Shown here in pieces: positions 24,333-24,528 of a DNA stretch of 64,000 nucleotides. The DNA lies in NCBI RefSeq assembly GCF_051903065.1, contig NZ_CP178438.1; one strand, 5' to 3'. Origin of the DNA: Escherichia coli (GTDB taxonomy: Bacteria; Pseudomonadota; Gammaproteobacteria; Enterobacterales; Enterobacteriaceae). Position 1 is the first letter of the stretch, and every line of letters begins with the position of its first letter. The notes beneath the pieces were generated by a model that was given only the letters and a program-made list of their open reading frames with translations, made no database searches and was not told where the DNA came from. Made by a program: the position numbers and the translations under genes.

Positions 24333-24528
24333 TCAGATAAGGCGTTTTCGCCGCATCCGACATTCGCACACGATGCCTGATGCGACGCTGGCGCGTCTTA
24401 TCAGGCCTAAAGGGATTTCTAACTCATTGATAAATTTGTTTTTGTAGGTCGGATAAGGCGTTCACGCCGCATCCGACATTTGCACAAGATGCCTGATGCG
24501 ACGCTGTCCGCGTCTTATCAGGCCTACG
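24333..24528. repeat. BIME-type cluster of four REP (repetitive extragenic palindromic) units in alternating orientation
   Basis: Four copies of GCCTGATGCGACGC...CGTCTTATCAGGCCTAC or GTAGGTCGGATAAGGCGTT.ACGCCGCATCCGACA type palindromes between mutT and yacG. Confidence 0.85.

Follow-up and report, generated by a model that had tools for sequence, protein, structure and literature searches.

The convergent genes mutT and yacG of Escherichia coli are separated by a gap that is filled almost entirely by palindromic repeats, and this raises the question of what kind of element is present there and what it could do for the two transcripts that end in it. The REP, an imperfect palindrome of 30-40 nt, is the most frequent intergenic palindrome of E. 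coli and belongs to a highly repeated family associated with RAYTs. Catalogues of REP and BIME elements in E. coli K-12 go back to the 1980s and 1990s. BIME-2 elements combine y and z2 REPs over a short S linker and occur in tandem copies, the number of which varies between strains; BIME-1 elements carry z1 and y around a long L linker, often with an IHF site, and occur as a single copy; atypical BIMEs are chimeric, with motifs of both BIME-1 and BIME-2 (PMC3333891). An original prediction, made for a window of 64,000 nucleotides (the whole stretch of DNA that was analysed), had placed four REPs of alternating orientation between mutT and yacG at 24333-24528. The four palindromes were found there with 89-97% identity to the consensus sequences. 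The element therefore stood as predicted and its ends were corrected to 24328-24527, the left end having been set about 5 nt short and the right end 1 nt long.

Methodology

The identity of each REP was scored against the published Y, Z1 and Z2 consensus sequences quoted in PMC11208160, and the six units of REP325 were extracted from K-12 for comparison. The strain counts were taken among 5,426 complete E. coli genomes. The mutT-yacG gap was followed beyond this species using 120 loci retrieved from a one-genome-per-species collection by a degenerate pattern for the conserved YacG peptide, the comparative loci being from other gammaproteobacterial genomes.

Location of the cluster

The window is E. 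coli chromosome near that of K-12, with the gene order secA, mutT, yacG, zapD and coaE in the open reading frame list, and the annotations of this region agree across 5,105 matching complete E. coli genomes and MG1655. The mutT gene (23942-24331, + strand, 129 codons) encodes 8-oxo-dGTP diphosphatase according to the open reading frame list and the annotation in K-12 and other E. coli. The yacG gene (24547-24744, - strand), identified from the same list and annotated in E. coli genomes as DNA gyrase inhibitor, is convergent with mutT. The end of mutT at 24331 and the yacG stop codon at 24547-24549 delimit a spacer of 215 nt, which is identical in E. coli K-12 MG1655. The REP cluster takes up 200 of the 215 nt, in accordance with the earlier statement that the spacer is nearly filled, and is followed by 19 nt of unique sequence (24528-24546) up to the yacG stop codon.

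The left boundary of the cluster lies within the end of mutT. The stop codon TAG (24329-24331) forms the last three bases of the GTAG foot of the first palindrome, REP1, which overlaps this stop codon and the last base of the final sense codon; otherwise all four REPs are intergenic. The REP1 hairpin begins at 24332, that is 0 nt past the mutT stop codon, and on the yacG mRNA 23 nt lie between the stop codon and the first paired base of the last palindrome, REP4. The foot GTAG is replaced by GTAT in O157:H7, UTI89, A30 and GPEC1337. MutT has 132 instead of 129 residues in these strains, the stop codon being a TAA or TAG inside the REP, and the C-terminus of MutT is here set by the REP.

The surroundings of the cluster were also inspected. 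The Rfam model STnc40 matched the + strand at window positions 23858-23927 with 81.7 bits, and this match spans the 3' end of secA together with a hairpin-plus-T-run terminator whose distance to the start codon of mutT, further downstream, is 15 nt. Due to this terminator, transcription of mutT probably needs its read-through or an undetected promoter. Two further Rfam matches above the gathering threshold are unrelated to the locus, namely PssrA (105.5 bits, 18122-18211, + strand) and tp2 (103.4 bits, 35799-35912, - strand). The open reading frames of 44-81 codons within the cluster cross the REP palindromes or lie on the antisense strand of yacG, and they were discarded as mechanical.

Architecture and class of the repeats

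The order of the four REPs is y, z2, y, z2. REP1 (GTAGGTCAGATAAGGCGTTTTCGCCGCATCCGACA, 24328-24362, + strand as read from GTAG) is of the y type with 89% identity to the Y consensus, and an 11-nt S-type linker (24363-24373) joins its head to the head of REP2. REP2 (TGCCTGATGCGACGCTGGCGCGTCTTATCAGGCCTAA, 24374-24410, + strand), inverted with respect to REP1, is of the z2 type with 97% identity to the Z2 consensus. An A+T-rich inter-unit spacer of 33 nt (24411-24443) lies between two tails and leads to REP3 (24444-24478), a y REP with GTAG on the + strand and 91% identity to the Y consensus. The second unit is completed by its own 11-nt S-type linker (24479-24489) and by REP4 (24490-24527, + strand), a z2 REP having 95% identity to the Z2 consensus. 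The conserved GTAG/CTAC foot is present as GTAG in REP1 and REP3 and as CTAC in the tail of REP4; the tail of REP2 is CTAA, which is one base off CTAC.

The comparison of the two halves revealed direct repeats with a period of 116/117, having 92% identity over 64 nt and a further 18 identical nt. Two 116/117-bp copies of a y-11 nt-z2 unit, arranged in tandem, make up the cluster. This supports the REP/BIME identity given in the original prediction and states it more exactly, as y/z2 REPs forming two tandem BIME-2 units and not four independent REPs. Tandem Repeats Finder made no call on the array, which spans only about 1.7 periods of 116 nt. A degenerate REP half-pattern gave 14 matches in the window against 4.7 expected, and six of them fall within the cluster. 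The search for inverted-repeat pairs also showed a half-REP remnant, GCATCAGACA, complementary to TGCCTGATGC, at 24533-24542 adjoining the REP4 tail; it may be the relic of a further, decayed REP.

At the level of sequence the cluster has every feature of a BIME-2: y and z2 REPs stand in inverse orientation, the S linkers are 11 nt long, and the units are in tandem and vary in number between strains. It was compared with REP325, the BIME-2 between yjdM and yjdN that is the source of naRNA1-6. Both share the unit of y, 11-nt linker and z2, the order and orientation of the REPs relative to the upstream gene, and the tandem arrangement with strain-variable copy number. They differ in that there are two units here and six in REP325, and in that the present cluster lies between convergent genes whereas REP325 lies inside an operon. 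The spacer also differs, being 33 nt, A+T-rich and with an IHF consensus in the present case, in contrast to the 17-nt, C-rich spacer of REP325, which is without IHF consensus. The most accurate label for the cluster is BIME-2 with an L-like spacer, and it is possibly an atypical BIME.

Proposed function

The general REP properties named in the original prediction, which were the relation to gyrase, IHF and REP-associated transposases and the action as mRNA stabiliser or terminator, are published for such elements. The cluster is very probably a two-unit element of BIME-2 type (y-S-z2, spacer, y-S-z2) placed in the 3' untranslated gap that is common to convergent mutT and yacG, with functions that would follow those of other REPs by analogy. 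The role considered most likely, on the same analogy, is that of a two-way 3'-end hairpin block for both converging mRNAs combined with a gyrase site.

The first part of this role would proceed through the REP hairpins without U-tract, which are expected to halt the 3'->5' exonucleases PNPase and RNase II on the transcript of either gene, thereby fixing and stabilising the mRNA 3' ends. Rho-dependent transcripts have been reported to end at U-less stem-loops that stop PNPase and RNase II (PMC6061677). The array may further damp read-through, partly via Rho, so that the two convergent transcription units would be insulated from each other. REP325 was found to be a terminator or attenuator that depends partly on Rho and that also stabilises the upstream mRNA. 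Among 704 convergent gene pairs, 207 have REPs, and the genes of these pairs show a higher expression (bioRxiv 10.64898/2026.03.23.713779). The same study also reported a large context-dependence, with no uniform REP effect on mRNA half-life (bioRxiv 10.64898/2026.03.23.713779).

The second part concerns gyrase, which cleaves BIME-2 elements with a preference for y REPs and independently of transcription (PMC6379681). The y REPs of the cluster would, by analogy, be preferred gyrase cleavage sites, and a gyrase site in this gap fits because the positive supercoils of two converging polymerases meet there. The names mutT and yacG are absent from the text supplements of the gyrase Topo-seq paper (PMC6379681), and in the supplements of the 2026 REP preprint they occur in expression tables only. 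A full-text literature search for mutT, yacG and REP together gave nothing relevant, and no experiment on the locus was found.

An effect on translation is also a candidate. REPs at 15 nt or less from a stop codon cause ribosomes to stall and reduce translation (Liang 2015, as cited in PMC12306157). REP1, at 0 nt from the mutT stop codon, resembles the translation-damping REPs described for nrdAB, among others, by Liang, Rudd and Deutscher (2015), in so far as that work is represented in the citing article. With the REP1 hairpin directly after the stop codon, slower termination and a lower MutT output would be expected. The yacG stop codon, with its distance of 23 nt, would be outside this range.

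Variation among strains and genera

The number of units was analysed across strains, as the original prediction had proposed, and was found to be one, two or three at mutT-yacG. At least two units, recognised by the unit1-spacer-unit2 junction, are present in 1,867 of the 5,426 genomes (34%), normally once per genome. A spacer-unit-spacer probe was fully covered in 58 genomes, mostly as single 181-nt matches, and three units are present in about 55 genomes (~1%); in strain A30 the y-z2 pair occurs three times with two IHF-consensus spacers. A single unit was seen in 22 of 39 chromosomal rows taken as an evenly spaced sample of the match ranking, and about 60% of E. coli genomes have one unit. 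O157 and UTI89 both belong to this one-unit group with different z2 variants, which suggests more than one deletion or duplication event. GPEC1337 (locus L004, 499-694) carries a divergent two-unit allele in which unit 1 and the spacer depart in numerous places from those of the K-12 type. At least one REP is retained in all the E. coli alleles that were examined. The natural alleles of this locus could be used as a series for relating REP dosage to the 3' ends of convergent genes. The change in unit number itself would take place by recombination between the direct repeats or by RAYT activity.

The second REP pair that had been noted between cueO and gcd at 51480-51580 proved to be real, with z1 and y at 51479-51579, and the gene names cueO and gcd were confirmed in K-12. 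This element is a presence/absence polymorphism, the filled form being found in 2,736 genomes, about half. In strain S7 the window segment 51458-51615 (158 nt, including about 55 nt of non-REP flank) is replaced by TGG, and a small GC hairpin at 51436-51455 stays in both alleles.

Beyond E. coli, both mutT and yacG were found in 77 of the retrieved loci. The arrangement was readable in 75 of these and convergent in 70. The gap has a median of 54 nt with an interquartile range of 33-85, and of the 61 gaps that reach 20 nt or more, 54 have a folding energy of -12 kcal/mol or better. In 6 of the 70 convergent loci, belonging to some genera, the stop codons overlap and there is no gap at all. REPs corresponding to the consensus of the genus itself, and in the same orientation, occupy the gap in Enterobacter cloacae, Enterobacter asburiae, Leclercia, Pseudescherichia, Citrobacter and Pseudocitrobacter (loci L026, L092, L047, L064, L012, L082, L109 and L070). 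The GTAG of the REP also supplies the mutT stop codon in E. cloacae, E. asburiae and one Pseudocitrobacter genome. Such genus-type REPs at one site fit concerted evolution or repeated REP replacement. Three units are present in L075, a divergent Escherichia genome. The conserved feature is one stable hairpin in the convergent gap, and in Escherichia this hairpin has grown into a BIME array.

These data bear directly on the main rival explanation, in which REPs were deposited and amplified by RAYT or recombination as neutral or selfish DNA in an insertion-tolerant convergent gap, the second unit being without effect on the host. Since one unit is enough in about 60% of the genomes and some genera are gapless, the second unit is dispensable and may be neutral or selfish; for this reason the explanation is given substantial weight as an account of the extra unit, while as a whole it is judged possible rather than probable. 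The lack of a fixed state among strains, the recurrent gain and loss suggested by the z2 variants of O157 and UTI89, and the cueO-gcd element that is merely present or absent are all in accordance with it, as is the slight degeneration of REP1 (an A.C mismatch in the stem) and of REP2 (the CTAA tail). Against it, a stable hairpin has been kept at this position far beyond Escherichia, no E. coli allele examined has lost its last REP, and the y stems still pair after departing from the consensus at two positions (GCCGG/CCGGC to GTCGG/CCGAC).

IHF consensus in the inter-unit spacer

The spacer between the two units bears a perfect IHF core consensus, TATCAATGAGTTA, at 24420-24432 on the - strand, and an A-tract precedes it on that strand; WATCAANNNNTTR is matched perfectly at the same positions. 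The spacer may bind IHF, as judged from this match to the consensus. In the 64-kb window the IHF consensus has 8 matches against 2.2 expected, and in two of the eight cases, which have the same orientation, the match is flanked by REPs standing tail to tail. The other one belongs to the cueO-gcd element, and its distances to the REP tails agree with those in the present spacer within 1-2 nt. The spacer is single-copy, with a median of one place per E. coli genome. The names mutT and yacG are absent from the text supplements of an IHF GeF-seq footprinting paper.

The cueO-gcd element (51479-51579), identified by the REP and IHF consensus sequences, is a canonical BIME-1 of the RIP/RIB type. A z1 REP (51479-51509, 97% identity to consensus) and a y REP (51545-51579, 91%) stand tail to tail around a 35-nt L linker, which carries the IHF consensus at 51519-51531 on the - strand. 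The centre of the mutT-yacG cluster resembles this arrangement, as it has two tail-to-tail REPs and a linker of about 33-35 nt with an IHF core consensus in the same orientation and spacing. It differs in that the partner of y is z2 and not z1, that it is embedded in a tandem array, and that the linker is little like L beyond the IHF core. The assignment of the centre as a BIME-1 was rejected, as REP2 and REP4 are z2 (97% and 95%) and only 76% identical to z1.

A related explanation holds that the functional core of the cluster is this central z2-spacer-y segment (24374-24478), acting as an IHF-binding, BIME-1-like RIP/RIB that would bend the DNA of the gap. The perfect consensus with its A-tract flank and the agreement with the cueO-gcd BIME-1 in orientation and REP-tail distances point to such a core. 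The retention of the consensus in both spacers of A30 and, as TATCAACGTGTTA, in the otherwise divergent spacer of GPEC1337 is consistent with it as well. This reading is nevertheless considered rather unlikely, because the left REP is not the z1 that defines BIME-1, and a hand alignment of the spacer with the cueO-gcd L motif shows no more than about 8 shared positions among the 26 outside the core. In the divergent Escherichia genome L075 the consensus is also broken (TATCTG...), and the one-unit alleles are without any such site.

Hairpin stability and termination

The block of 3' ends in both directions, which is preferred here, depends on the stability of the REP hairpins, and these were folded as RNA and as DNA. 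The RNA hairpins of the four REPs range from -13 to -22 kcal/mol on both strands. The REP1 stem, which holds the A.C mismatch (GTCAGAT/ATCCGAC), gave -13.1 kcal/mol on the + strand and -17.0 kcal/mol on the - strand with a DNA hairpin z of -2.9. REP2 gave about -21 kcal/mol on both strands with a DNA z of -4.7, and REP3 about -19 kcal/mol with a DNA z of -4.5. The DNA folding of each REP was far better than that of shuffled sequences (z -2.9 to -5.2), and the whole spacer as RNA also exceeded its shuffles on both strands (z -4.9 and -6.1).

Such values could suggest that the REPs are canonical Rho-independent bidirectional terminators, the more so as 78 REPs lie within predicted bidirectional terminators (bioRxiv 10.64898/2026.03.23.713779). 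The promoter/terminator scan, however, gave no hairpin followed by a T-run in 24332-24546 on either strand. The hairpins are followed by AAAGGG and GTGCGG on the + strand and by an A-run and CAGACG on the - strand. The classical intrinsic terminator was rejected due to the absence of U-tracts after the hairpins, and this explanation is regarded as very unlikely. The same scan found no convincing promoter in the mutT-yacG gap.

Relation to naRNA4 and significance

The Rfam family RF02564 (naRNA4) matches both units end to end, over model positions 1-77 of 77, on the + strand, which is the mutT-sense strand, with 77.8 and 78.4 bits, the gathering score being 59.5. The model rests on the 77-nt REP325 unit (PMC4550694). 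These matches, together with the published HU/nucleoid model (PMC4550694), would agree with an naRNA4-like small RNA made from each unit, which would bind HU and condense the nucleoid by bridging REP cruciforms. This is highly improbable by several lines of evidence. The family is in effect the generic y-linker-z2 unit, and a match to it reveals repeat identity and not function. REP325/naRNA4 was without measurable nucleoid compaction in a 2026 preprint that includes the original laboratory, REP-REP contacts were not seen in Hi-C, and mutT is weakly expressed, with a base mean of about 230 in the RNA-seq table (bioRxiv 10.64898/2026.03.23.713779). The naRNA4 function was rejected as the main reading on account of the generic y-z2 model and the disputed function.

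It could also be imagined that the cluster, lying downstream of yacG and overlapping the mutT stop codon, is a dual gyrase/IHF module of variable copy number whose alleles tune MutT/YacG output, a lineage-specific mutation rate or the control of gyrase; the one-, two- and three-unit alleles, with 0, 1 and 2 IHF consensus sites, would then set differing read-through and local supercoiling, but the support for this is the juxtaposition alone and the idea is scarcely credible. The position of a gyrase-binding repeat next to the gyrase-inhibitor gene yacG is most likely a coincidence.

The cluster is an ordinary and already known type of repeat, and no feature of it departs from published BIMEs. 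The stop codon of mutT supplied by REP1, the spacer with the IHF consensus, the alleles of one, two and three units and the recurrent occupancy by IS621 have annotation value and are not discoveries; these local details leave the current understanding unchanged.

Insertion site of IS621

The natural target of IS621 is the 11-nt sequence ATCAGGCCTAC with a CT core (PMC11208160). An exact copy of this target is included in REP4 at 24517-24527, and REP2 holds a copy with one mismatch at 24400-24410. As in the REP targets of IS621, REP4 ends in the exact target and natural insertions occur at its CT core elsewhere; unlike the occupied ones, the site of this window is empty, and a search of the whole 64 kb found no IS621 ends.

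Among the 5,426 complete genomes, IS621 is present in the REP4 tail in 181 (3.3%). In nature the mutT-yacG site is exploited by IS621, a bridge-RNA recombinase of the IS110 family, and not by a REP-associated Y1 transposase. In FORC_028 (locus L003, 3272-4559) it is inserted at the CT core of the target in REP4. The junctions in this strain are ...ATCAGGCCT followed by TGTATT... on one side and ...CAGTATCT followed by ACGTGCGG on the other, and the bridge-RNA region lies just inside the left end of the element.
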